Positions 5,103-44,501 of a stretch of 44,715 nt of DNA are shown here, in pieces (position 1 is the stretch's first letter; each line of letters opens with the position of its first letter). The stretch lies in the sequence record NC_073082. The stretch is one strand, 5' to 3'. The stretch comes from Shigella phage vB_SboD_StarDew. A program made the translations under genes and the position numbers. Below the pieces are notes generated by a model. The model had not been told where the DNA came from. It ran no database searches and worked only from the letters and a program-made list of their open reading frames with translations.

Positions 5103-5115
5103 TGGCCCCCTTTTC
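5092..5115. terminator. bidirectional rho-independent terminator (GGGGCC-gtaat-GGCCCC + TTTT) between convergent genes
   Basis: Perfect 6-bp GC stem read directly; T-run follows on plus strand; located between o-spanin stop and stop of the minus-strand gene. Confidence 0.6.
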
Positions 5116-5116
5116 G

Positions 5117-5881
5117 TTAGCGCGGAATACCGCAAATCTCGTTGAGAGTTTTCACATCCAGCGCCACCGCCGTGGATTTTGGCTTGTCCGGGTAAGGGAT
5201 GAATTGCTCAACTTCAGGCCATGCCTTAATCAGCTTCTTGTCAGTATTGTGCAGGTCCAGCACACCGGTAACGGTCAACTTGAACGCGTCATACTTAGCC
5301 CGCAATTCGCGGCGGGCCTTATCGTTACGGTCCAGGCGCTTGCAGAAATCGTGGTCCGCAGGGTAGTCTATGCGACCGCGTGGCTTATAGATCGGCAGCG
5401 ATTTTCCGTCCTCGTCCACTTCACACACCGAAGCCAGCATAACTTCCTCGAACCCCGGTACGATATCGCCGAGATCGGGAGATAGCTTATTCATGTATTT
5501 ATATTCCCAGTATCCTCGATGTACTCGGTATTGGTATCCGTCGCCGCTCAATGACAAGGTGCGAACGTTTCCGCCTGCGTTTATTTCGAAAGTGGCGTCG
5601 TAAACGCTGCCGATACCTTTTGGGCGGTCGGTGTTATAACTATACGTCGCCTTGTTGGTGTATACACAGACGCCGTACATCTGCGACGGGTCATCGCCGA
5701 TTGCTTCAATGCGCTCGAGTAGCTTGGCGAACGTGCGAATGCCTTCCGGCATACAGTCCAGCGTAATGGCATAAGCCAGGTCGCGCGAGTCCATCATGAT
5801 TTGTTTGGCTTCTGTCGCGATTTCGTGGTCGCGCAGGATGTTAGCCAGGATCTGATTTTTAATGTCTTTAGTAAGTCTCAT
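5117..5881 (-). CDS. hypothetical protein (254 aa), reverse-strand accessory gene (moron) inside head module
   Basis: Long ORF with GAGGA RBS 8 nt upstream of ATG at 5881; own promoter at 5911-5940; ORF track 5117..5926 trimmed to first ATG with RBS. No family recognised. Confidence 0.6.
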   Translation of the reverse strand: MRLTKDIKNQILANILRDHEIATEAKQIMMDSRDLAYAITLDCMPEGIRTFAKLLERIEAIGDDPSQMYGVCVYTNKATYSYNTDRPKGIGSVYDATFEINAGGNVRTLSLSGDGYQYRVHRGYWEYKYMNKLSPDLGDIVPGFEEVMLASVCEVDEDGKSLPIYKPRGRIDYPADHDFCKRLDRNDKARRELRAKYDAFKLTVTGVLDLHNTDKKLIKAWPEVEQFIPYPDKPKSTAVALDVKTLNEICGIPR

Positions 5882-5910
5882 TTTTGTGTCCTCGTTGTTG
5901 GTGTGCAACC

Positions 5911-5940
5911 AATATAATGCAACCAATACTCGGATTGCAA
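5911..5940 (-). promoter_or_regulatory. candidate promoter (minus strand): -35 TTGCAA, 18-bp spacer containing ATTGGTTGCA, -10 TATATT
   Basis: Read on reverse complement; same architecture recurs at 27247-27275 and 40008-40036. Confidence 0.45.
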
Positions 5941-6029
5941 GCGAATTTTGCGATTATTTTTATCGCTGATAATATTAAGGCGTGAAGTCAAGCGGGTGGC
6001 CCGCTTTGCCACAATCCCAGGGGGATAGC

Positions 6030-11188: not shown

Positions 11189-11502
11189 TTGAGGCGGCGC
11201 GACGCTTTTATGGCCCGCCGCCACCCTCCGAAGATTTAGCCGCAAGTTTATGGGGTGCGACCCCCGAAGATGTTTGCCCGCCGGTTGCACTATGGCCCGA
11301 CAACGCGAAGGTAGTCGCAGTCTTCACAGATTGCTCCACGCAATGGCGCACCGGATTCGGTGGCGCATACGGCATCGACTACGGCGTACTGGAATGGCTA
11401 TTTAAGATGCACGGCATCGAAAACGCGCAACGTGCGTTTAAAGATATCAAGCTAATGGAACGCGTTGCGCTGGATGAAATGGCGCGGCAGAACCACGCAT
11501 AA
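10826..11502 (+). CDS. tail assembly chaperone GT-like fusion made by -1 programmed frameshift at A_AAA_AAC (11179-11185)
   Basis: -1 frame is open from 11179 to stop at 11500-11502 with no in-frame start codon until 11407; slippery heptamer sits just before the G stop codon. Confidence 0.6.
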
Positions 11503-11504
11503 CG

Positions 11505-11817
11505 GAGCGGGACAGGCGGGACGTCCCGTTTTGTCCCGCACCTCTAAAACTGCATATTTACTCACCACAATTGCATAAATTAAAAGCGGGACAGGGGTGC
11601 TGTCCCGCTTTGTCCCTCCCTTAAAAGTGAATAGCTATGCGGTTTTTCTGCATAAAACAAACGGGACAAAAAGCGGGACTGAATGGGGCGGGACAAAGCG
11701 GGACAGCACCCCTGTCCCCGCCAGTGCTGCCGCGGTTTTTAGCCGATCGGGACAGGCGGGACAAAGCCCAGTCTTTCAGACTAGACGGGGGGTCTGGCAC
11801 CCCCTCGTCTGAGACTG
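11505..11817. repeat. iteron/hairpin array A: multiple GCGGGACA repeats, palindromes, ACTGCATAA motifs and a 49-nt imperfect hairpin
   Basis: Read directly; about 90 bp plus the 49-nt hairpin nearly identical to 39660-39848. Confidence 0.85.
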
Positions 11818-11885
11818 AATAAGGTTTGTTTTAAATTCGCTGATACAATGACCGACGGCAACTGCATAAAAAGGGGGACTGCATA

Positions 11886-20746: not shown

Positions 20747-20771
20747 CGAAGGGGCCATCCGGCCCCTTTTC
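20747..20771. terminator. bidirectional terminator (GGGGCC-atcc-GGCCCC + TTTT) between J and convergent minus-strand gene
   Basis: Read directly. Confidence 0.6.
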
Positions 20772-21735
20772 AATACATATTCGGGATGACGAGTAGCGGG
20801 GTAGGTACGGCAATATTTTTACCCGGCATCTGAAATTGCTGCCGTGAGTAGTTGCCGATGACGCGGTTTTTAGCGACGCGCACATTATTACCCGCCATGC
20901 GGATTCCGTTCATGCGGACGTGGTTATAGCCCCCGTTGTTCTGAATCAGCGCTCCGGTGTATGAAAGCTGGATCAGGCTGTTTCCAATATTCTGGTCGCT
21001 CGTTCCGATGTTAATAGTGCGGTCATATACGAACGGCTTGTTCACCGTCGAGAACGTTACCTGATTCTGGTTATTCGTCATGGTAATCCCAGCCCCTGGC
21101 GTGGGTGGTGTATTGTTGAATATTACCAAATCCATGTCCACCGAAGCCGCCACATCGTCGATGCCACCGTAGGACGCGTTGCGGACGATAATACTGCCGC
21201 CATCGAAGCCAACTGATACGTTGCCGTCATCCCAGCGGGCGAACGGGACACCGCTAACAGGCAACGCCATACTCCCGTTGACGCGCACGCGCTTTGCGTA
21301 TCTGCAGGTCATCAGCTTCGCCACGTTGGATATTGCGGTGAAGTCCGTCGAGTTCGCCACCAGTAAACCCGCGTTACGCGACCCAACCGGCAGCACTTCC
21401 ATTATGACGCCCGCCCATTGTGGTAAACCGGAGTATGCGCCATACGCATCCTCCCCGCGCAGGGTGATTCCGCTATTACCGTTGCGAGTAACCGACGTAA
21501 CGTAAAACGGATCTGGTATTACCAGGGTCTGGTCGAATACCTCAATCACTTCTACAGGGCGAGTGAGCGCGACGACGACCTGCGACCCAGCCGTAAGAGG
21601 GGTGTTAATGGTTAGCGTCTTGTTGGACTGTGCCCGCTGGTTAAAGCTGGTGCAGTATGCCGGCGCGCGAAGCCCTGCGGTGATCTCCATGCGCGGTCTT
21701 CCGTCGTTGTAGTCGATAAGTATTCCAGCGCCCAT
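20770..21735 (-). CDS. putative receptor-binding / tail fiber-like protein (321 aa), reverse strand
   Basis: Asn/Gly/Ser/Thr-rich beta-rich sequence; GGGAGTGG RBS before ATG at 21735; co-oriented with upstream lipoprotein gene. Confidence 0.45.
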   Translation of the reverse strand: MGAGILIDYNDGRPRMEITAGLRAPAYCTSFNQRAQSNKTLTINTPLTAGSQVVVALTRPVEVIEVFDQTLVIPDPFYVTSVTRNGNSGITLRGEDAYGAYSGLPQWAGVIMEVLPVGSRNAGLLVANSTDFTAISNVAKLMTCRYAKRVRVNGSMALPVSGVPFARWDDGNVSVGFDGGSIIVRNASYGGIDDVAASVDMDLVIFNNTPPTPGAGITMTNNQNQVTFSTVNKPFVYDRTINIGTSDQNIGNSLIQLSYTGALIQNNGGYNHVRMNGIRMAGNNVRVAKNRVIGNYSRQQFQMPGKNIAVPTPLLVIPNMY

Positions 21736-21737
21736 TA

Positions 21738-21959
21738 TTACCACTCCCGTGATTTAACTGATACTGTGCCTGAGAAATTGCCGTCGCTATCTGAAGACAG
21801 CCCAGTGAATCGCATGTCCACATCTCCTGCCGGTACTTTTTGCCCATCAACGTAGCGCAACATGCAGCTACCGTACGCAACCGTAATGCAATCGCCGTTG
21901 TTGCGTTCTACGGCGCAACCGGATAAAAGAACCGCACAAATCATAATTAAAGTTTTCAT
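21738..21959 (-). CDS. small lipoprotein (73 aa), candidate superinfection-exclusion protein (Llp/Cor-like role)
   Basis: Signal peptide plus lipobox (MKTLIMICAVLLSGCA); RBS GGGGATGA; track ORF 21738..22022 trimmed to ATG at 21959. Confidence 0.5.
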   Translation of the reverse strand: MKTLIMICAVLLSGCAVERNNGDCITVAYGSCMLRYVDGQKVPAGDVDMRFTGLSSDSDGNFSGTVSVKSREW

Positions 21960-22039
21960 GGTATCATCCCCTATATTTGGTTGAGTTTTAGTATTACACC
22001 GCTCAACCGGGATTGCAACCAATTTAAGAGGATTCAGCT

Positions 22040-24112: not shown

Positions 24113-24125
24113 CCGAAGAGTGAAA

Positions 24126-24152
24126 GAAAGGGGCCGTGCGGCCCCTTTTTTT
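24126..24152. terminator. bidirectional terminator (GGGGCCG-tgc-GGCCCC flanked by T-runs on both strands)
   Basis: Read directly; ends the tail fiber gene and the leftward operon. Confidence 0.65.
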
Positions 24153-24727
24153 TAGTTTGAGTTTTCCCAGTCCATTTTTCGCCGCACCAGCGGGCTTTCG
24201 TAATATTCCTTCCCATCCACTTCCACTAAGGGCCAGTCATTAACAATGACGTAAGGTTCTGCGATATCCTCGATCACGCCGTGCGCACTATGTTGTCCGA
24301 AATCTACGCCTACCAGGATAACCCCGGCAACTCGACGAGCAAGATATTCGCGGGCGCAACGCGCCTCTACCAGTCCGCGACGGATGCCGCTGGTGGCCTT
24401 AACCTCGTAGGTCCAGACGGCATCGATCACATGTTCGCGGAAGTCGGGACCGGATTTTACCTTGCGCTTGCCGACCATGATAATATCGCCGCGGTCGATA
24501 GTGTTAGCGCTAAACAGGCCGGTACGCATTAGCAAACCTTGCGGGATACAGCTACGCCCGCCCGCCTGCCCTTCGAGGTACATGCCCGCAAACATCTCAC
24601 CCAGCACACCGACCAGACGGCTTTGCCTGCAAGCGTCGGACTTGTATCGCCACTGGTCAAACTCGATGCTTGCGATCATTGCCGCCAGGTGGAATTGTTT
24701 ACCAGATATTTCATATTCGCCGTACAT
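24152..24727 (-). CDS. hypothetical protein, possible PD-(D/E)xK-type nuclease
   Basis: 191 aa; GAGGA RBS; candidate motif GPDF...TYEVK; weak assignment. Confidence 0.45.
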   Translation of the reverse strand: MYGEYEISGKQFHLAAMIASIEFDQWRYKSDACRQSRLVGVLGEMFAGMYLEGQAGGRSCIPQGLLMRTGLFSANTIDRGDIIMVGKRKVKSGPDFREHVIDAVWTYEVKATSGIRRGLVEARCAREYLARRVAGVILVGVDFGQHSAHGVIEDIAEPYVIVNDWPLVEVDGKEYYESPLVRRKMDWENSN

Positions 24728-25291: not shown

Positions 25292-25353
25292 TATGTTTTC
25301 CTTTTTAGTGGGGGCGGTATTGCCCCCGACGTGATTAAGATACTGCAACCAAC

Positions 25354-25824
25354 CTATTGGTTGCAAGTGAATTTTGCAACGTTTATCGCATAAATTTTCG
25401 GGACCAGATCGCCGCACGCCCGACGAATTGCCGCGATGTTCTTCGGACAGTCTTCAATGATGACCAGTTCCGACACGTCCGCGTAGCAGACCATTTTGAA
25501 CACGGCGCACGCCTTAAACTCTGGCGGCGGGGTGTCGTCCAGCATGTGGCGCATAAACAACCGGCCTACCGGGAATACCTCCAATTGCTCGGCGGTGGTG
25601 TCCCAACATTCACGCTGCCGGTTGGTCAGATACGCGATCTCGAAGCCTTGCTCTTTGTACATGGTCAGCAGCGGCAGCATATCCATGTTCAGATCTTCGC
25701 GTACGTGCGCTCTGTGCCACTTCGCCCAAAAGGTGGATTTAGTTTTTATGCCAGGCACCAGGTCGGCACGCGCATCGCTTGAACCGTTAATAACGCCATC
25801 CAGATCGCAAATCAGTAATTTCAT
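25354..25824 (-). CDS. HAD-superfamily phosphatase-like protein (possible nucleotidase / polynucleotide 3-prime phosphatase)
   Basis: N-terminal HAD motif I (LLICDLDGVI); GAGGAG RBS. Confidence 0.55.
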   Translation of the reverse strand: MKLLICDLDGVINGSSDARADLVPGIKTKSTFWAKWHRAHVREDLNMDMLPLLTMYKEQGFEIAYLTNRQRECWDTTAEQLEVFPVGRLFMRHMLDDTPPPEFKACAVFKMVCYADVSELVIIEDCPKNIAAIRRACGDLVPKIYAINVAKFTCNQ

Positions 25825-26956: not shown

Positions 26957-27199
26957 TTATTTAAGCTCCGTTGTGCGAATCTCATCGCGCGGGATAAATT
27001 TACCATCCATCTCAACCCAGCAGACACCATAGCGCCATTGGGTATTGCGTCCGGTTTGCTCGGGGTACACGGTATTGCATTCGTAGCGTTCCGTGTAGTA
27101 AATAGCCGCTGTAGGTACGCAAACACAAACGGCAATCATGAGGGTGAGGAGCACCCAAAATCGAAGGTCGCCGTCGTAGTCGAAAAATAATGATTTCAT
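26957..27199 (-). CDS. small membrane protein (one TM helix)
   Basis: Hydrophobic segment WVLLTLMIAVCVCVPTAAIYY; GGAGAC RBS before ATG at 27199; own promoter at 27247-27275. Confidence 0.45.
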   Translation of the reverse strand: MKSLFFDYDGDLRFWVLLTLMIAVCVCVPTAAIYYTERYECNTVYPEQTGRNTQWRYGVCWVEMDGKFIPRDEIRTTELK

Positions 27200-27246: not shown

Positions 27247-27275
27247 AATATAATGCAACCAATACGGTTATGCAA
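27247..27275 (-). promoter_or_regulatory. candidate promoter (minus strand): -35 TTGCAT, 17-bp spacer containing ATTGGTTGCA, -10 TATATT
   Basis: Read on reverse complement; 19-mer AATATAATGCAACCAATAC identical to 5911-5929. Confidence 0.45.
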
Positions 27276-27280
27276 CCAAT

Positions 27281-29983: not shown

Positions 29984-30157
29984 TTATTTTTGCTCTGCGC
30001 GGTAGCGGCGTTGTCGTTCGCGCTCTTTTTTATTGCGGCACGATTTGCACTCGGCCCGATACCCGTCCGGGCTGCGTGCAGTCTTACCGGTGTATTTGTG
30101 GAACTGGGATAGCGGTTTAACGCAGCCGCAATTACTGCAACGTTTTTCTTCAATCAT
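29984..30157 (-). CDS. small zinc-ribbon protein (CxxC...CxxC) with basic C-terminal tail
   Basis: MIEEKRCSNCGCV...YRAECKSCRNKKERERQRRYRAEQK; GAGGG RBS before ATG at 30157. Confidence 0.45.
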   Translation of the reverse strand: MIEEKRCSNCGCVKPLSQFHKYTGKTARSPDGYRAECKSCRNKKERERQRRYRAEQK

Positions 30158-30197: not shown

Positions 30198-30476
30198 CTA
30201 TGCGACCAATTCAGCAACCAATAAATCACAGTCGGCGATGTTGTCGATAACGCGAACGTCCGCACCGCGGCGGGCCATTCGCTCATGTTCACGTACCTGG
30301 TGCGGCTTCGGTTTTCCTCCTGGGCGCTTCACTTCGACGAACACTATTTTGCCGTTGATGATGATAATCAGGTCTGGCGCACCTGCGCGCCCCTCCCAGG
30401 CCATTTTGCGGCAGAATCCGCCTACCTCTTTCACCCGTCGCATCAGGTGACTTTGAATCTTTCCTTCTGGTGTCAT
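30198..30476 (-). CDS. VRR-NUC domain nuclease
   Basis: PD-(D/E)xK core APDLIIIINGKIVFVEVKRPGGK; ATGA overlap with polymerase stop. Confidence 0.65.
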   Translation of the reverse strand: MTPEGKIQSHLMRRVKEVGGFCRKMAWEGRAGAPDLIIIINGKIVFVEVKRPGGKPKPHQVREHERMARRGADVRVIDNIADCDLLVAELVA

Positions 30477-33775: not shown

Positions 33776-33865
33776 TTTCCAATTCCTCATTTTCACATGT
33801 ATCGGGGTTATTGGAAGCCACCCCGTTCGGCTTGGTTGCAGATTTACTCGGTTGCGCCTAAGCGG

Positions 33866-34108
33866 TCAAGCATTTTCATCAAAAAGATTTCGGGTCACGT
33901 AATTGGTTGCGTTCTCGATCCAGCTTAACGGCGGGCGGTCGATGTTCTTTTCCACCCAATCGACGGCAACTTCGCTATAGCCGTCATCCAGCCAGCGGGT
34001 CGGATGGCGAATCATCCACGCCACCATTAACACGCCTTGCACGCAATGCAGGATAAATCCCAGCGCGCCGAGCAAAAACATCAATAAGATTGCGAATACT
34101 TTATTCAT
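33866..34108 (-). CDS. small membrane protein (80 aa)
   Basis: Two hydrophobic segments (VFAILLMFLLGALGFILHCVQGVLMVAWMI); GAGGA RBS. Confidence 0.45.
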   Translation of the reverse strand: MNKVFAILLMFLLGALGFILHCVQGVLMVAWMIRHPTRWLDDGYSEVAVDWVEKNIDRPPLSWIENATNYVTRNLFDENA

Positions 34109-36525: not shown

Positions 36526-36721
36526 GGTGTATCTCCGATTGGTTAAGTTTAGGTGTCGGCAGTTAACTTCGTCGGTGGCCTTAACATATTGCCAGGTTAC
36601 GCGTTCTCCCGTTCGGGTAGTGGACCTGGTTATATAATCACGGTTGGGAATCCTGACACTTCGATCCGGCCCCTGCGTTGCCCCTCTCCAGTTTGCGTCC
36701 TGCATCCTGTCGACGGAGTGA

Positions 36722-36750
36722 ATATTAGATTGGTTGCAGAAGGGAGTCAA
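36722..36750 (-). promoter_or_regulatory. candidate leftward early promoter: -35 TTGACT, 17-bp spacer containing TGCAACCAAT, -10 TAATAT
   Basis: Read on reverse complement directly downstream of the minus-strand terminator. Confidence 0.35.
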
Positions 36751-36759
36751 CAACTAATT

Positions 36760-36795
36760 AAAAAAAAAAAGCGCCGAGGCAAAATGCACCGGCGC
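36760..36795 (-). terminator. strong minus-strand rho-independent terminator (GCGCCG-13 nt loop-CGGCGC followed by 11 U)
   Basis: Read directly: plus strand has A11 then the hairpin, so the U-tract follows the stem only on the minus-strand transcript. Confidence 0.65.
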
Positions 36796-36824
36796 TAACC
36801 AATAAGAGACAATGAGACGGGAGT

Positions 36825-36853
36825 ATTATTACACGCGTGCGCGCCCGTTTCAA
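36825..36853 (-). promoter_or_regulatory. candidate minus-strand promoter: -35 TTGAAA, 17-bp spacer, extended -10 TGtAATAAT; about 60 nt upstream of the terminator
   Basis: Read on reverse complement; back-to-back with the rightward promoter. Confidence 0.4.
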
Positions 36854-36865
36854 TATCCAAAGGAT

Positions 36866-36894
36866 TTGACACCTTACGGTTTTAGGTGTAGTTT
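36866..36894 (+). promoter_or_regulatory. candidate rightward promoter: perfect -35 TTGACA, 17-bp spacer, weak -10 TAGTTT
   Basis: Read directly; 32 nt upstream of ATG at 36926. Confidence 0.4.
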
Positions 36895-36925
36895 CGTTGG
36901 TCATTAACCAACTGAGGGCAGTGCG

Positions 36926-37255
36926 ATGAATGTAAATGACGCAATCGAAATGTTAACGAAGACTGTTAGCAGTGAAACACGCCGGTCATGGGCTTATACC
37001 GATGCCGTGGGGGCGGTGTTATTTGAAATCGAACGACTGCGCAGTGTCGAAAAAGAATTACGCGCCAGGCTGGAATTGCTCAACGGCACGGCAGCAAGCA
37101 AGCTGCAAAAGCACAATGAAGAAATGGAAGAATACAAAAAACAGGTTATCCGTTTGCGCGCCGAGGGCAAATCCTGGGCGATGATTGCCGAGTTGACCGG
37201 AATTAATCAGAGCACAGTGCGCTCCTGGGTACGCAATAATAAAACTTCTAAGTAA
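36926..37255 (+). CDS. HTH DNA-binding protein (candidate transcriptional regulator)
   Basis: C-terminal helix-turn-helix-like segment GKSWAMIAELTGINQSTVRSWV; GAGGG RBS; first rightward gene. Confidence 0.55.
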   Translation: MNVNDAIEMLTKTVSSETRRSWAYTDAVGAVLFEIERLRSVEKELRARLELLNGTAASKLQKHNEEMEEYKKQVIRLRAEGKSWAMIAELTGINQSTVRSWVRNNKTSK

Positions 37256-39530: not shown

Positions 39531-39607
39531 ATTTTGCGCGCATTGGTCGCCGTTATGGGAATCCCCATATCGGTAAAAGATTAAATTTTGCGCGCATTGG
39601 TTGCCAT
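39521..39607 (+). repeat. pair of 31-nt direct repeats (AAAAGATTAAATTTTGCGCGCATTGGT(C/T)GCC) separated by 25 bp
   Basis: Read directly; first copy overlaps primase stop codon; each copy contains an ATTGGT(C/T)GCC element. Confidence 0.85.
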
Positions 39608-39659
39608 TTTGCGTGCTTTTAGCCGGTCGTATTGGTTGCCGTGTAGTGTAAATATAATG

Positions 39660-39848
39660 AATAGTTATGCAGTTTTATTGCATAAAGTAAGCGGGACAAA
39701 AAGCGGGACAGACCAGGGGCGGGACAAAGCGGGACAGCACCCCTGTCCCGCCCCGGATGACGCGGCCTGGCGAGGAGCGGGACAGCGGGACAGCACCCCA
39801 GTCTTTCAGACTAGACGGGGGGTCTGGCACCCCCCTCGTCTGAGACTG
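39660..39848. repeat. iteron/hairpin array B, near-duplicate of array A
   Basis: Shares GGGACAAAAAGCGGGAC, GGGGCGGGACAAAGCGGGACAGCACCCCTGTCCC and the 49-50 nt hairpin with array A. Confidence 0.85.
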
Positions 39849-40007
39849 CATAAAATCCAGGATTGCATAACGCACGGCAACATGATGCAAATTGCGGTCG
39901 TCGATGATCTAGGCAACCAATGCGAGTTGCAGAATGGTGGGTGAGAAATGCAGTTTGCAGTCACAGCAGATAGCGATCAACTTTTTCATACGCGTGATTA
40001 ATATTGG

Positions 40008-40036
40008 TTGCACCCACCCTGGCACCCTGCTATATT
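40008..40036 (+). promoter_or_regulatory. candidate promoter: -35 TTGCAC within ATTGGTTGCA, 17-bp spacer, -10 TATATT, conserved leader
   Basis: Leader TATATTGGTTGCACACCAACA...GAGGAC nearly identical to the reverse complement of 5890-5916. Confidence 0.45.
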
Positions 40037-40064
40037 GGTTGCACACCAACATGAGGACTGAACA

Positions 40065-40370
40065 ATGAAAGCATTAATCTGGAATTACACAATGGCGGTG
40101 GCGAAGCTGTATGAAGCGAAGCACACAGACGGCAACGCAGACGACGCTCGCCAGGTTGTCATCCTGGCCCGGCAGGGAATCATGGACGCGTTCGACGATA
40201 TGTTTGCCAGCCTGGACGAACTGGAACCGCTGCGCGTGGCAATCTGCGAATATGCGAGGGCATTTGCCCGTGAGCGCCTGGCGTATCGCTTCGGGATCGG
40301 AGAGACGGCAGCGACAAACGTCGCCCGGATTAAAGCCCAGCGCGAGCTATTCGCCCAGCTTGCGAAATAA
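40065..40370 (+). CDS. hypothetical protein (101 aa)
   Basis: GAGGA RBS; first gene downstream of promoter at 40008-40036. Confidence 0.5.
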   Translation: MKALIWNYTMAVAKLYEAKHTDGNADDARQVVILARQGIMDAFDDMFASLDELEPLRVAICEYARAFARERLAYRFGIGETAATNVARIKAQRELFAQLAK

Positions 40371-40379
40371 GGGGCCAAA

Positions 40380-40649
40380 ATGGACCGCAGACGCGCAAAA
40401 CGCCTTTCATGGCGTATTCCACTGCATTGCATACGAATATGGGCTAAGAATGCGAATGAGGGCGATTCTGTGTTCTGGTGCTATCGCGACGATGTGAAGC
40501 CATTAACGCAGACTCGCTATCTGCACCAGTTCGCCAGGGGGCATGGGCTTGCCATAAAAACGTCCTTGCAACCAATTGGCATCCGTATTACATTACGCCG
40601 GAAGCCCGCAGTCGAGCGGGTAGGCAAACACTGGAGACTGAGCAAATGA
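40380..40649 (+). CDS. hypothetical basic protein (89 aa)
   Basis: AAGGGG RBS 6 nt upstream of ATG; alternative-frame ORFs overlap, so coding frame uncertain. Confidence 0.35.
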   Translation: MDRRRAKRLSWRIPLHCIRIWAKNANEGDSVFWCYRDDVKPLTQTRYLHQFARGHGLAIKTSLQPIGIRITLRRKPAVERVGKHWRLSK

Positions 40650-43245: not shown

Positions 43246-43272
43246 AAGCCCGCCGTATTGGCGGGCTTTTTA
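43246..43272 (+). terminator. rho-independent terminator (AGCCCGCC-gtatt-GGCGGGCT + TTTTT)
   Basis: Read directly. Confidence 0.65.
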
Positions 43273-43289
43273 TTGTTCGACCTGCGACC

Positions 43290-43325
43290 AATTAATAGCC
43301 CATACTGCGGTCGCCGTGGTATATT
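43290..43325 (+). promoter_or_regulatory. candidate promoter with extended -10 (TGgTATATT at 43317-43325) and upstream TGCGACCAAT element
   Basis: Read directly; 34 nt upstream of ATG at 43359. Confidence 0.35.
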
Positions 43326-43358: not shown

Positions 43359-44501
43359 ATGCACCCGCAAACTAAAATCACCGACGAGCAATTGATCGCC
43401 GAGTTGCAATCCGGCACTACCGCGAAAGAGATTGCGAAGAAGTACGGCCTTTCCCTACGAAACGTCTATATGCGCAAAGCCCGCCTGTCGAAGAAAGGTA
43501 TTGGTCACGGTAATGATGCCGTAATCCGTAAGCGCGTTGCCGATGGCTTCGGCGTGAAGCGTGTCTCCGCCCTGGTGCGTGGCAATGGCGAAGAGGTCAT
43601 GTCGTGGGTTATCACAGAGCAGGACAAGGAGCGCCAACTCGAAGCTATGCGCGCTGTTGTCGAGGGCATGAACAGCGAAATCACACCGGCAGCGCCAGTA
43701 AAAGCCCCGCCAGTCCCGATCCAGGCGCTCGACTTGCTAAACCTGTACACCGTGTCAGACTTCCACCTGGGCATGTTGGCGTGGGGCGAGGAGACTGGAG
43801 AAGACTGGGATATGGCAATCGCCGAAGATCTGTTTTACCGCTGGTTTGTCGAAGCCTTCGCACGCGCACCAGACGCAGGCACTGCCGTAATTAATATCCT
43901 CGGTGATATGGCGCACTTTGATAGCCTCGATGCGGTCACCCCGGCAAGTGGTCACGTACTTGACGCCGACACCCGATACCAGAAGTTGGTCCGCTACATG
44001 ATTCGCATGGTGCGCAACGTCGTCGAACTGGCGCTGCAAAAACACCACAAAGTCAAACTGCTAATCGTCCAGGGGAATCATGATGAGTCGGGCATGATTT
44101 GGCTTGCTGAGATGTTCAACACGCTGTACGAGAACGAGCCGCGCGTCGATGTGGATACGTCCCCGGACGTCTACAAAATGGTGCAGCACGGTAAGACCAC
44201 GCTATTCTTCCACCACGGGCACAAAGCGCGATTCGATGCTATCGAGACGGTTATGATTGCTAAGTTCAGGAAAGCATTTGGCGAAAGCGAGTACAGCTAC
44301 GCGCACGTAGGCCACTTGCACCACCAGAAGATTGTAGAATCCCGCAACATGATTGTTGAACAGCACCGGACGCTCGCAGCGAAAGACGCCTACGCCAGTC
44401 GTGGCGGTTGGATGTCCGGTCGCAGCGCAAACGTCATCACCTATAGCGCCAACTACGGCGAAGTAGCACGCTTAACCATTAGCCCGGAAATGTTGAAATG
44501 A
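43359..44501 (+). CDS. fusion protein: N-terminal HTH domain + calcineurin-like metallophosphoesterase
   Basis: HTH-like TAKEIAKKYGLSLRNVYMRKARL; phosphoesterase motifs VSDFHLG, ILGDMAHFD, VQGNHDE, FFHHGH, HVGHLHH in canonical order. Confidence 0.65.
   Translation: MHPQTKITDEQLIAELQSGTTAKEIAKKYGLSLRNVYMRKARLSKKGIGHGNDAVIRKRVADGFGVKRVSALVRGNGEEVMSWVITEQDKERQLEAMRAVVEGMNSEITPAAPVKAPPVPIQALDLLNLYTVSDFHLGMLAWGEETGEDWDMAIAEDLFYRWFVEAFARAPDAGTAVINILGDMAHFDSLDAVTPASGHVLDADTRYQKLVRYMIRMVRNVVELALQKHHKVKLLIVQGNHDESGMIWLAEMFNTLYENEPRVDVDTSPDVYKMVQHGKTTLFFHHGHKARFDAIETVMIAKFRKAFGESEYSYAHVGHLHHQKIVESRNMIVEQHRTLAAKDAYASRGGWMSGRSANVITYSANYGEVARLTISPEMLK

Follow-up and report, generated by a model that had tools for sequence, protein, structure and literature searches.

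The described systems closest to the one reported here include the operators and stoperators of mycobacteriophage L5, a temperate phage whose immunity repressor is gp71 and whose stoperators are oriented with transcription, and the Cro/CI operators at PL and PR of lambdoid phages. Also pertinent are the sites of lambda CII, which have the form TTGC-N6-TTGC, and the MotA box of T4, which is centred at -30. Work on anti-phage defence now uses the Dhillonviruses (SECphi4, SECphi18, Bas14-18 and others) as standard test phages. We found no account of their transcription programme in the searchable literature: start-site or RNA-seq data were found for no Dhillonvirus, and searches for promoters of Dhillonvirus, HK578 or SO-1, and for the word described below, likewise gave nothing, the exact-string matches being unrelated primers. 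Among PHIRE-type repeats, the dispersed 21-nt repeat aaATAGCACnnnTTGnTAAAA of phage TLS has been likened by its authors to the L5 stoperators (PMC11447400). Here, we describe a short word dispersed over the genome of a Dhillonvirus, its placement relative to candidate promoters and the phage protein that may read it.

The window, that is, the whole stretch of DNA analysed (44,715 bp, G+C 54.7%), belongs by megablast to the genus Dhillonvirus, HK578-like virulent E. coli siphophages, with 93-96% identity to many genomes of ~44-45 kb, and because its length matches theirs we take it to be an essentially complete genome. Mapping onto annotated relatives places the structural genes on the plus strand from 14 to ~24,100, interrupted by two minus-strand inserts (5117-5881, the Nmad5 moron gene, and 20770-21959). 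A replication and modification block follows on the minus strand from 24,152 to ~36,700, and a plus-strand block starting at 36,926 holds the gene for a 109-aa helix-turn-helix (HTH) protein, the primase-helicase gene, small genes, the lysis genes and a phosphoesterase gene. Neither an integrase nor an immunity gene or module is annotated in eight Dhillonvirus records.

An initial annotation had proposed a recurrent promoter family at gene boundaries, and both its enrichment and its location at gene starts are borne out: TGCRACCAAT has 12 exact matches in the window against 0.26 expected, with a maximum of 2 in 100 shuffles. At up to one mismatch, TGCAACCAAT has 19 matches (3.06 expected), and the 9-mer core ATTGGTTGC is present in 15 copies (0.55 expected). 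An unbiased order-3 Markov k-mer screen, run blind to the earlier word, places ATTGGTTGCA at the top of the 10-mers (10 versus 0.10 expected) and ATTGGTTGC at the top of the 9-mers, with AGCGGGACAG as the sole other family that is strongly over-represented. Per genome, 16-21 copies are found at up to one mismatch. The positions first listed were right within 1-6 nt, and four more copies can be added:

5904-5913, 5918-5927, 22014-22023, 25344-25353, 25356-25365: motif copies, confirmed
27254-27263, 27271-27280, 30201-30210, 30213-30222, 36729-36738: motif copies, confirmed
39596-39605, 39631-39640, 40003-40012, 40034-40043, 43283-43292: motif copies, confirmed
39542-39551, 39912-39921, 40567-40576, 33831-33840: motif copies missing from the earlier list

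The information in the aligned copies is confined to about 10 bp, a-TTGGT(T/c)GC-(a/c), which form an asymmetric logo with flanks that carry none, and TTGC is no more invariant than ATTGG, the 5 bp that precede it. Relative to the local genes, 12 copies are oriented with transcription and 7 against it, and the distances between neighbouring copies are irregular (9, 12, 13, 14, 17, 31 and 35 bp).

Many of these copies coincide with hexamer pairs of the sigma-70 type, in which a -10 hexamer with A at position 2 and T at position 6 stands with a -35 hexamer 16-18 bp upstream. The arrangements TTGCA(A/T/C)-N17/18-TATATT are present exactly as first claimed (5940 to 5911 and 27275 to 27247 on the minus strand, 40008 to 40036 on the plus strand), and the leaders of the genes starting at 5881 and 40065, said to be almost identical, are indeed so (TATATTGGTTGCACACCAACAACGAGGAC at 5916 to 5888, TATATTGGTTGCACACCAACATGAGGAC at 40031-40058). 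Site by site, the layout is as follows, including details from the relatives L008 and L010:

5904-5913, minus strand: motif copy ATTGGTTGCA at -9 to 0 of the moron promoter, forming the left arm of a palindrome at 5897-5913; invariant in 7 genomes
5918-5927, minus strand: motif copy in the spacer at -23 to -14, 1 nt before TATATT; flanking spacer bases vary, the motif is kept
5911-5940, minus strand: candidate promoter TTGCAA-18-TATATT of the Nmad5 moron gene, found by the neutral scan; promoter and leader stand before three different cargo genes in relatives
22014-22023, minus strand: motif copy at -40 to -31; Ioannina has a two-copy version in the same place
22018 to 21990, minus strand: candidate promoter TTGCAA-17-AATACT of the lipoprotein and DUF6453 genes, with conserved hexamers
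25344-25365, both strands: inverted pair, GTTGGTTGCA (minus) in the spacer and ATTGGTTGCA (plus) giving a palindromic TTGCAA at -35
25366 to 25337, minus strand: candidate promoter TTGCAA-18-TATCTT; one copy is flipped in JLBYU60
27254-27280, minus strand: two direct copies 17 bp apart, at -40 to -31 and -23 to -14; same design in L008
27275 to 27247, minus strand: candidate promoter TTGCAT-17-TATATT of gene 26957-27199 and downstream genes
30201-30222, minus strand: two direct copies, ATTGGTTGCT and ATTGGTCGCA, 12 bp apart; conserved in relatives and L008
30217 to 30189, minus strand: candidate promoter TTGCTG-17-TATAGT of the Lar-like zinc-ribbon gene 29984-30157
33831-33869, minus strand: candidate SSB-gene promoter TTGACC-17-TAAATC, its reverse variants being (c)GCAACC(A/G)AG (spacer) and TGCAACCAAG (+1); in L008 TTGACA-17-TATCTT, with GCAACCAAT abutting the -10
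36722-36750, minus strand: putative main leftward promoter TTGACT-17-TAATAT, found by the neutral scan, with the reverse copy 36729-36738 placed in the spacer at 1 nt from the -10; the spacer of L008 and L010 is filled by a tandem pair of reverse copies
36866-36912, plus strand: candidate rightward promoter TTGACA-17-TAGTTT of the HTH gene, with the palindrome GTTGGT-N5-ACCAAC (36896-36912) over the start site; in the leaders of L008 and L010, the equivalent position is taken by a complete GCAACCAAT copy
40003-40050, plus strand: two direct copies 31 bp apart, at -40 to -31 and -9 to 0, and the palindrome ATTGGT-N5-ACCAAC at 40034-40050
40008 to 40036, plus strand: candidate promoter TTGCAC-17-TATATT of gene 40065-40370
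40566-40594, plus strand: candidate internal promoter TTGCAA-17-TACATT, its -35 being the palindromic end of the reverse copy 40567-40576, which lies within a coding region at a mosaic boundary
43283-43325, plus strand: reverse copy TGCGACCAAT and degenerate copy 43306-43315 upstream of the phosphoesterase gene, between a terminator (43246-43268) and an extended -10, TGgTATATT (43316-43325); the least clear architecture

Motif sites fall on lax sigma-70-like hexamer pairs at 15 site-strands, compared with 2.6 +/- 1.5 at random positions, and eleven hexamer pairs overlap motif copies at this lax threshold. The hexamers are conserved in relatives and stand upstream of genes with a ribosome-binding site (7-8 genomes, with a like design in L008). 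Promoter-like matches of a neutral sigma-70 scan are not enriched over shuffles in the window, and just two motif promoters pass it, because TTGCAT, TTGCAC and TTGCTG match TTGACA at only 3/6 positions; the promoter claim therefore rests on conserved geometry and not on scan scores. From this geometry, we infer that the hexamer pairs are plausible promoters, would fire and belong to the genes assigned to them. Several of the transcription units are closed by terminators, at 5111 to 5091 (moron), 29976 to 29960 (Lar-like gene) and 24121-24154 (the unit of the 25350 locus).

Relative to these hexamers, motif positions span -40 to about +18. The slot at -40 to -31, in which TTGC(A) is the -35 box, is taken by forward copies at 22014, 27271, 30213, 40003 and 39631. 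The spacer slot at -23 to -14, 1 nt before the -10, is occupied by forward copies at 5918, 25344 and 27254 and by a reverse copy at 36729, the slot at -28 to -19 by a single copy (30201), and that at -9 to 0 by the copies at 5904 and 40034. Reverse copies with a palindromic TTGCAA serve as the -35 box at 25356 and 40567, and promoters with a canonical TTGAC(A/T/C/G) -35 (36750 to 36722, 33869 to 33841 and two in L008) carry the word in reverse orientation in their spacer. The palindromic form RTTGGT-N5-ACCAAY occurs three times in the window (0.01 expected), each time over a putative start site: of the moron gene, of the gene at 40065 and at the HTH gene's own promoter. Two other readings of such sequences were rejected. 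An RNA-level role of the leader palindrome is contradicted by its 5' arm, which overlaps the -10 and therefore would not be transcribed, and Rfam returned nothing in the window; a sigma-54 reading of TGGCAC...TTGCA near 40020 fails on spacing when the sequence is inspected.

Seven other Dhillonvirus genomes, among them Ioannina at ~80% identity, retain every motif copy at its position, and the number of relatives with copies at the same positions rises to eight when one ~70%-identical contig is counted. In alignments of 7-8 genomes, 78.5% of motif columns and 76% of hexamer columns are invariant, compared with 57.7% of other intergenic columns (odds ratio 2.7), figures that serve only as description, given the relatedness of the genomes. 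Each decamer is unchanged across the alignments, whereas free variation is seen in the bases that separate paired copies (for example 7 bp at 27254/27271) and, at the moron promoter, in the 8 bp that lead from the -35 to the first motif copy, which is itself kept. One copy at the 25350 locus is inverted in JLBYU60 yet remains in place. In the metagenomic relative L008, which has ~70% identity in conserved genes and a different terminase, ATTGGTTGC is again the top 9-mer (10 versus 0.16 expected); its copies are syntenic with those of the window, and the architecture is unchanged. The motif and the 109-aa HTH protein were found together in 10/10 genomes or contigs examined, and Jerseyvirus phi135 has zero copies of ATTGGTTGC and no homologue of the 109-aa protein. 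A wider scan of viral contigs for tandem 9-mer pairs was swamped by unrelated 27/54-nt tandem arrays, with ~70 chance matches estimated and fragments that were short.

One account of these sites is a plain promoter family, in which the word is an extended -35 region, TTGCA with the bases upstream of it, for host sigma-70 RNA polymerase alone, with no dedicated protein, and extra copies are relics of promoter duplication or overlapping tandem promoters. At least seven cases in which TTGC stands 17-18 bp upstream of a conserved -10, the conservation of the hexamers and the terminators that bound the cassettes are all as this account would have it. Copies in the spacer, at +1 or in reverse, however, cannot be the -35 box of the adjacent gene, and tandem overlapping promoters starting from spacer or +1 copies were rejected, as a search for an acceptable -10 at 16-18 bp downstream found none; reverse copies likewise lack one 17 bp downstream. 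Nor do sigma-70 contacts explain why ATTGG is as invariant as TTGC, why conserved copies at 39542, 39596 and 39912 come without hexamers, why the word is present even in canonical TTGACx promoters, or why it is absent from the related Jerseyvirus, whose host is closely related. We therefore regard a plain promoter family as unlikely. Of the promoter reading in the initial annotation, what stands is the conserved -10 at 17-18 bp beyond TTGC in many copies; the spacer, +1, reverse, flipped and promoter-less copies, together with the invariant ATTGG, mean that the word is more than a -35 element. Such features, as read from the sequence, are hallmarks of a putative protein-binding site laid over core promoters, and of the two earlier proposals, a possible regulator site at the duplicated motif has more support than the promoter reading with which it was coupled. 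The targets also reach beyond the accessory genes originally named: besides Nmad5, the Phage_lipoprotein and DUF6453 pair and the Lar-like protein, they include the main leftward promoter, the SSB promoter, internal promoters of the replication and modification operon, and region B beside the primase-helicase gene.

Region B is annotated in the SO-1 record as a repeat region and possible origin. A 13-nt subtype of the motif, CGYATTGGTYGCC, brackets its GCGGGACA iteron core with four copies:

39539-51, 39593-605 and 39627-40, plus strand: three direct CGYATTGGTYGCC copies, left of the iterons
39912-39924, minus strand: inverted copy GGCAACCAATGCG, right of the iterons, 100% complementary to 39593-39605

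The inverted copy has no promoter context and is invariant amid variable flanks, and at least three of the four region-B copies (39542, 39596, 39912) lack conserved hexamers. This arrangement of direct and inverted repeats around the iterons, and the gene order, in which the primase-helicase gene (754 aa, with an AAA_25 domain only) is immediately flanked by the HTH gene on its upstream side and by region B on its downstream side, would suit a replication or architectural element, for instance a site for a protein that organises the origin in region B, with the promoter copies coupling transcription to replication. At least 14 of the 20 motif copies, however, are dispersed at gene starts inside core promoters, away from region B, and region A, the second iteron cluster, has no motif copy in the window, so that we consider this account very improbable. 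Some protein must also read GCGGGACA, the second over-represented word, and the HTH protein could serve there rather than at the motif.

A protein that may read the motif is encoded at the start of the rightward operon, beside the divergent control region:

36926-37255, plus strand: gene for a 109-aa protein in which a long helix precedes a C-terminal HTH; foremost candidate as reader of the motif

Residues 65-105 score above the Pfam cut-offs for HTH_23, HTH_28 and Sigma70_r4_2, and below the cut-off for HTH_3. The AlphaFold (AF2) model (pLDDT 84) has a long helix, residues 26-79, that runs into a tri-helical HTH; the next match in a PDB sequence search is the vimentin coiled coil, and fold matches are local only, to HTHs of LuxR/GerE-type, IS-transposase and resolvase proteins, all with E > 0.3. 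PHROGs places the protein in a family of its own, labelled 'transposase'. An alternative sigma factor was rejected as its identity, the protein being 109 aa long and having a region-4-like HTH, no region 2 and one long helix as the remainder, and searches by sequence and fold for homology to CII, MotA or AsiA gave none. The family is small (24 clusters, all on ~45-kb phage-like contigs), and across 17 members the C-terminal ~60 residues are almost invariant and the N-terminal ~45 hypervariable; in CHD5UKE2, the N-terminal half is replaced outright, with HTH and DNA word unchanged. As judged from the model, the 6-5-6 palindromes and the paired copies would both suit a dimer that is joined by a coiled coil and bears two HTHs; the irregular distances between copies do not match any single rigid dimer geometry.

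Co-variation of protein and word offers no help in identifying the reader: Gln at the start of the recognition helix is replaced by Val, Met or Arg in homologues (L007, L008, L010) while the word is unchanged, so there is no specificity switch to exploit. The co-occurrence of protein and motif is weak evidence, because it comes from a single clade. A second phage protein, the HTH-phosphoesterase (380 aa, 43359-44501), is disfavoured as reader because Jerseyvirus phi135 keeps a 75%-identical homologue and has zero copies of the word. The constancy of the motif despite the recognition-helix substitutions would also agree with a host-factor site, bound by an E. coli transcription factor (a LacI-family member, for example) or nucleoid protein and exploited by the phage, as would the copies that read GTTGCATT and so resemble the CytR octamer. 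Yet the conserved bases are those of ATTGGTTGC, and the bases after GC(A) that a CytR octamer needs vary, a mismatch on which the CytR lead was dropped; no CRP-like flanking sites were noticed in the sequences inspected, the word is absent from the related phage of a closely related host, and a top genome word is typical of phage-specific regulation. A host factor is, in our view, quite improbable.

How a phage protein bound at these sites would act depends on their position. The word could be an activator site, at which host RNA polymerase would be brought or redirected to promoters with weak -35 hexamers by a phage protein, the HTH protein or another, so that a middle or delayed-early class arises. 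The forward promoters of the -40 to -31 slot have poor -35 boxes (TTGCAT, TTGCAC and TTGCTG score 3/6), and their copies would suit activation no less than repression; the HTH scores as sigma-70 region-4-like, and TTGC is part of the word as it is of CII sites. Set against this, activator geometry is usually fixed and here position and orientation vary, spacer and +1 copies are typical repressor positions, the spacings differ from the 10-bp register of CII, and the 109-aa protein has no homology to CII or MotA. We hold activation to be possible but doubtful. A variant that we rate as improbable combines both signs and makes the 109-aa protein a free-standing, sigma-region-4-like two-way switch on host RNA polymerase. 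Bound at the forward -40 to -31 copies, it would replace the weak -35 contact and activate delayed promoters; at the reverse spacer copies it would silence the canonical early promoters (PL, SSB); and the inverted 13-mers around region B would be its clamp on the origin. If true, this would be a one-protein analogue of sigma appropriation, unrelated to MotA/AsiA of T4.

The reading that we favour, to which we give about an even chance of being right as a whole, is that ATTGGTTGC(A) is the predicted site of a DNA-binding protein on sigma-70-type promoters, and that these sites form one regulon with the 109-aa protein as its reader and repression as its mode. This regulon would take in the flanks of region B, the putative origin, and about ten transcription units: the leftward replication operon and the promoters internal to it, the SSB gene, the small genes of the rightward block, and three moron cassettes, the last built as promoter-gene-terminator units. 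The most likely reader would be the phage's own protein encoded at 36926-37255, predicted as a coiled-coil-like helix that ends in a LuxR/sigma-region-4-like HTH, and we infer that it binds the word. Repression is the most likely sign of regulation because almost all of the promoters carry at least one copy in the spacer or over -10/+1, where a bound protein would clash with RNA polymerase; forward copies at -40 to -31 would double as the -35 element. It may take the form of an early shut-off or of a feedback loop, including autoregulation via the palindromic site on the protein's own promoter.

Taken together, a 10-bp word, about eleven candidate promoters and a candidate regulator amount to a testable model of gene control for Dhillonvirus. 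The model would account for how moron genes, once swapped in, become part of the phage programme: one conserved cassette of promoter, operator and leader carries varied cargo (Nmad5, a lipoprotein family member or a Lar-like protein), and could serve as a ready-made engineering part for Dhillonviruses.

Like the gp71 operators and stoperators of L5, the motif system described here consists of a short asymmetric site in ~20 dispersed copies per genome, at promoters and in short intergenic gaps, with a candidate small HTH protein as reader, encoded beside a divergent control region. Unlike in L5, no integrase or immunity module is annotated, orientation is mixed (12 with transcription, 7 against), many copies double as -35 boxes, and we saw no protein homology. 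The lambdoid Cro/CI system at PL and PR shares with it a small HTH protein as the first rightward gene, sites in both divergent promoters and, in the 17-bp palindrome over the HTH protein's own promoter, an autoregulation-like feature. In contrast to the tripartite operator clusters of lambdoid phages, the sites here are mostly single asymmetric 10-mers spread genome-wide, and the divergent region holds one motif copy in PL and one palindrome at PR, which is not clustering of the Cro type; the protein is of HTH_23/LuxR/sigma-4 type with a coiled-coil-like helix, not of the Cro/HTH_3 fold. The TLS repeat resembles the word in ranking first in a small virulent coliphage transcribed by host RNA polymerase and in lying in intergenic regions between terminator-bounded modules, whereas the word here is shorter and different in sequence, has a definable position relative to -35 and -10 and a palindromic variant, and comes with a named candidate reader. 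As at CII sites and MotA boxes, a phage-specified word replaces or overlaps a weak -35 in front of a good -10, with TTGC in the word; here, however, neither register nor position is fixed, spacers and +1 positions carry copies as well, and the 109-aa protein has no sequence or fold relationship to CII, MotA or AsiA. The motif system is thus not a member of the L5 stoperators, of the lambdoid Cro-type operators or of the TLS-type dispersed repeats, and is best read as a probable phage-specific regulatory word with a candidate cognate regulator.

The helix-turn-helix (HTH) protein, the leading candidate reader of the motif, is unevenly conserved across the family: its N-terminal third (45 codons, 36926-37060) is hypervariable or mosaic, and in CHD5UKE2 it is wholly exchanged, with a gain of 40 aa. 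Hardly any change is seen in the 60 residues at the C-terminus. This pattern suggests a fixed DNA-binding module that would carry a swappable partner-binding or sensing module at its N-terminus.

The divergent control region also holds a short leftward unit (36760-36853, minus strand), composed of the following two elements:

36853->36825, minus strand: promoter-like site TTGAAA-17-(TGT)AATAAT, which heads the unit
36795->36771, minus strand: hairpin with a U11 run (dG -16.9, z -2.55), downstream of the promoter-like site

Pairing in the stem is maintained by compensatory changes in Ioannina and in L008, a metagenomic relative that is about 70% identical, and a search of Rfam gave no match for the unit. 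It is possible that the unit encodes a small RNA of about 55-60 nt or an attenuator, placed upstream of the main leftward promoter. Further along, the leader of the leftward operon contains a 52-nt stretch (36638-36689) with 92-94% identity to unannotated DNA in otherwise unmatched coliphages of about 51 kb and one Salmonella phage (slyngel, ityhuna, tunus and Phunderstruck). The stretch is missing from Ioannina, rolling and CHD5UKE2, in which a different first gene begins at this point.

In the moron cassette (5117-5940; homologous loci L001-L007 in relatives), promoter, operator and leader are invariant and the cargo gene varies: it is Nmad5 in the window, Ioannina, Oekolampad and rolling, another gene in JLBYU60, and a gene annotated as 'DNA pol III beta' or 'RusA-like' in AV129 and SO-1. 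Back-to-back with the moron promoter lies a further candidate, which lacks the motif:

5948-5975, plus strand: candidate promoter TTGCGA-16-TAATAT, preceding the genes for scaffold and capsid

About 40 bp around it are almost invariant in seven genomes, and it may be a late promoter that does not belong to the motif regulon. A mosaic boundary (40520-40600) falls at the internal candidate promoter 40566-40594: on the 5' side of TTGCAACCAAT the coding sequence of the window is very unlike that of its relatives, and the sequence on the 3' side is conserved.

The 380-aa metallophosphoesterase (43359-44501) shares 75% identity with a protein of a Jerseyvirus. Near its N-terminus, residues 8-48 weakly resemble an HTH and fall below Pfam cut-offs; SO-1 gives the protein two annotations, transcriptional regulator and repair exonuclease.

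Unrelated viral contigs of about 78-85 kb from IMG/VR (L012-L033, L090 and others) contain ATTGGTTGC within long tandem arrays (27/54-nt period); these matches are a sequence coincidence and have no connection with the Dhillonvirus motif.

A second family of over-represented words, (A/G)GCGGGACA(G/A), is kept in L008 and in a further relative, L010. In the window it clusters in two non-coding stretches, 11500-11830 and 39689-39850, which lie 28 kb from each other and have in common a palindromic block of about 50 nt (CCCAGTCTTTCAGACTAGACGGGGGGTCTGGCACCCC..TCGTCTGAGACTG). The SO-1 record labels their counterparts as repeat regions A and B and as possible origins. This two-region layout recalls that of an ori accompanied by a second cis-acting region.
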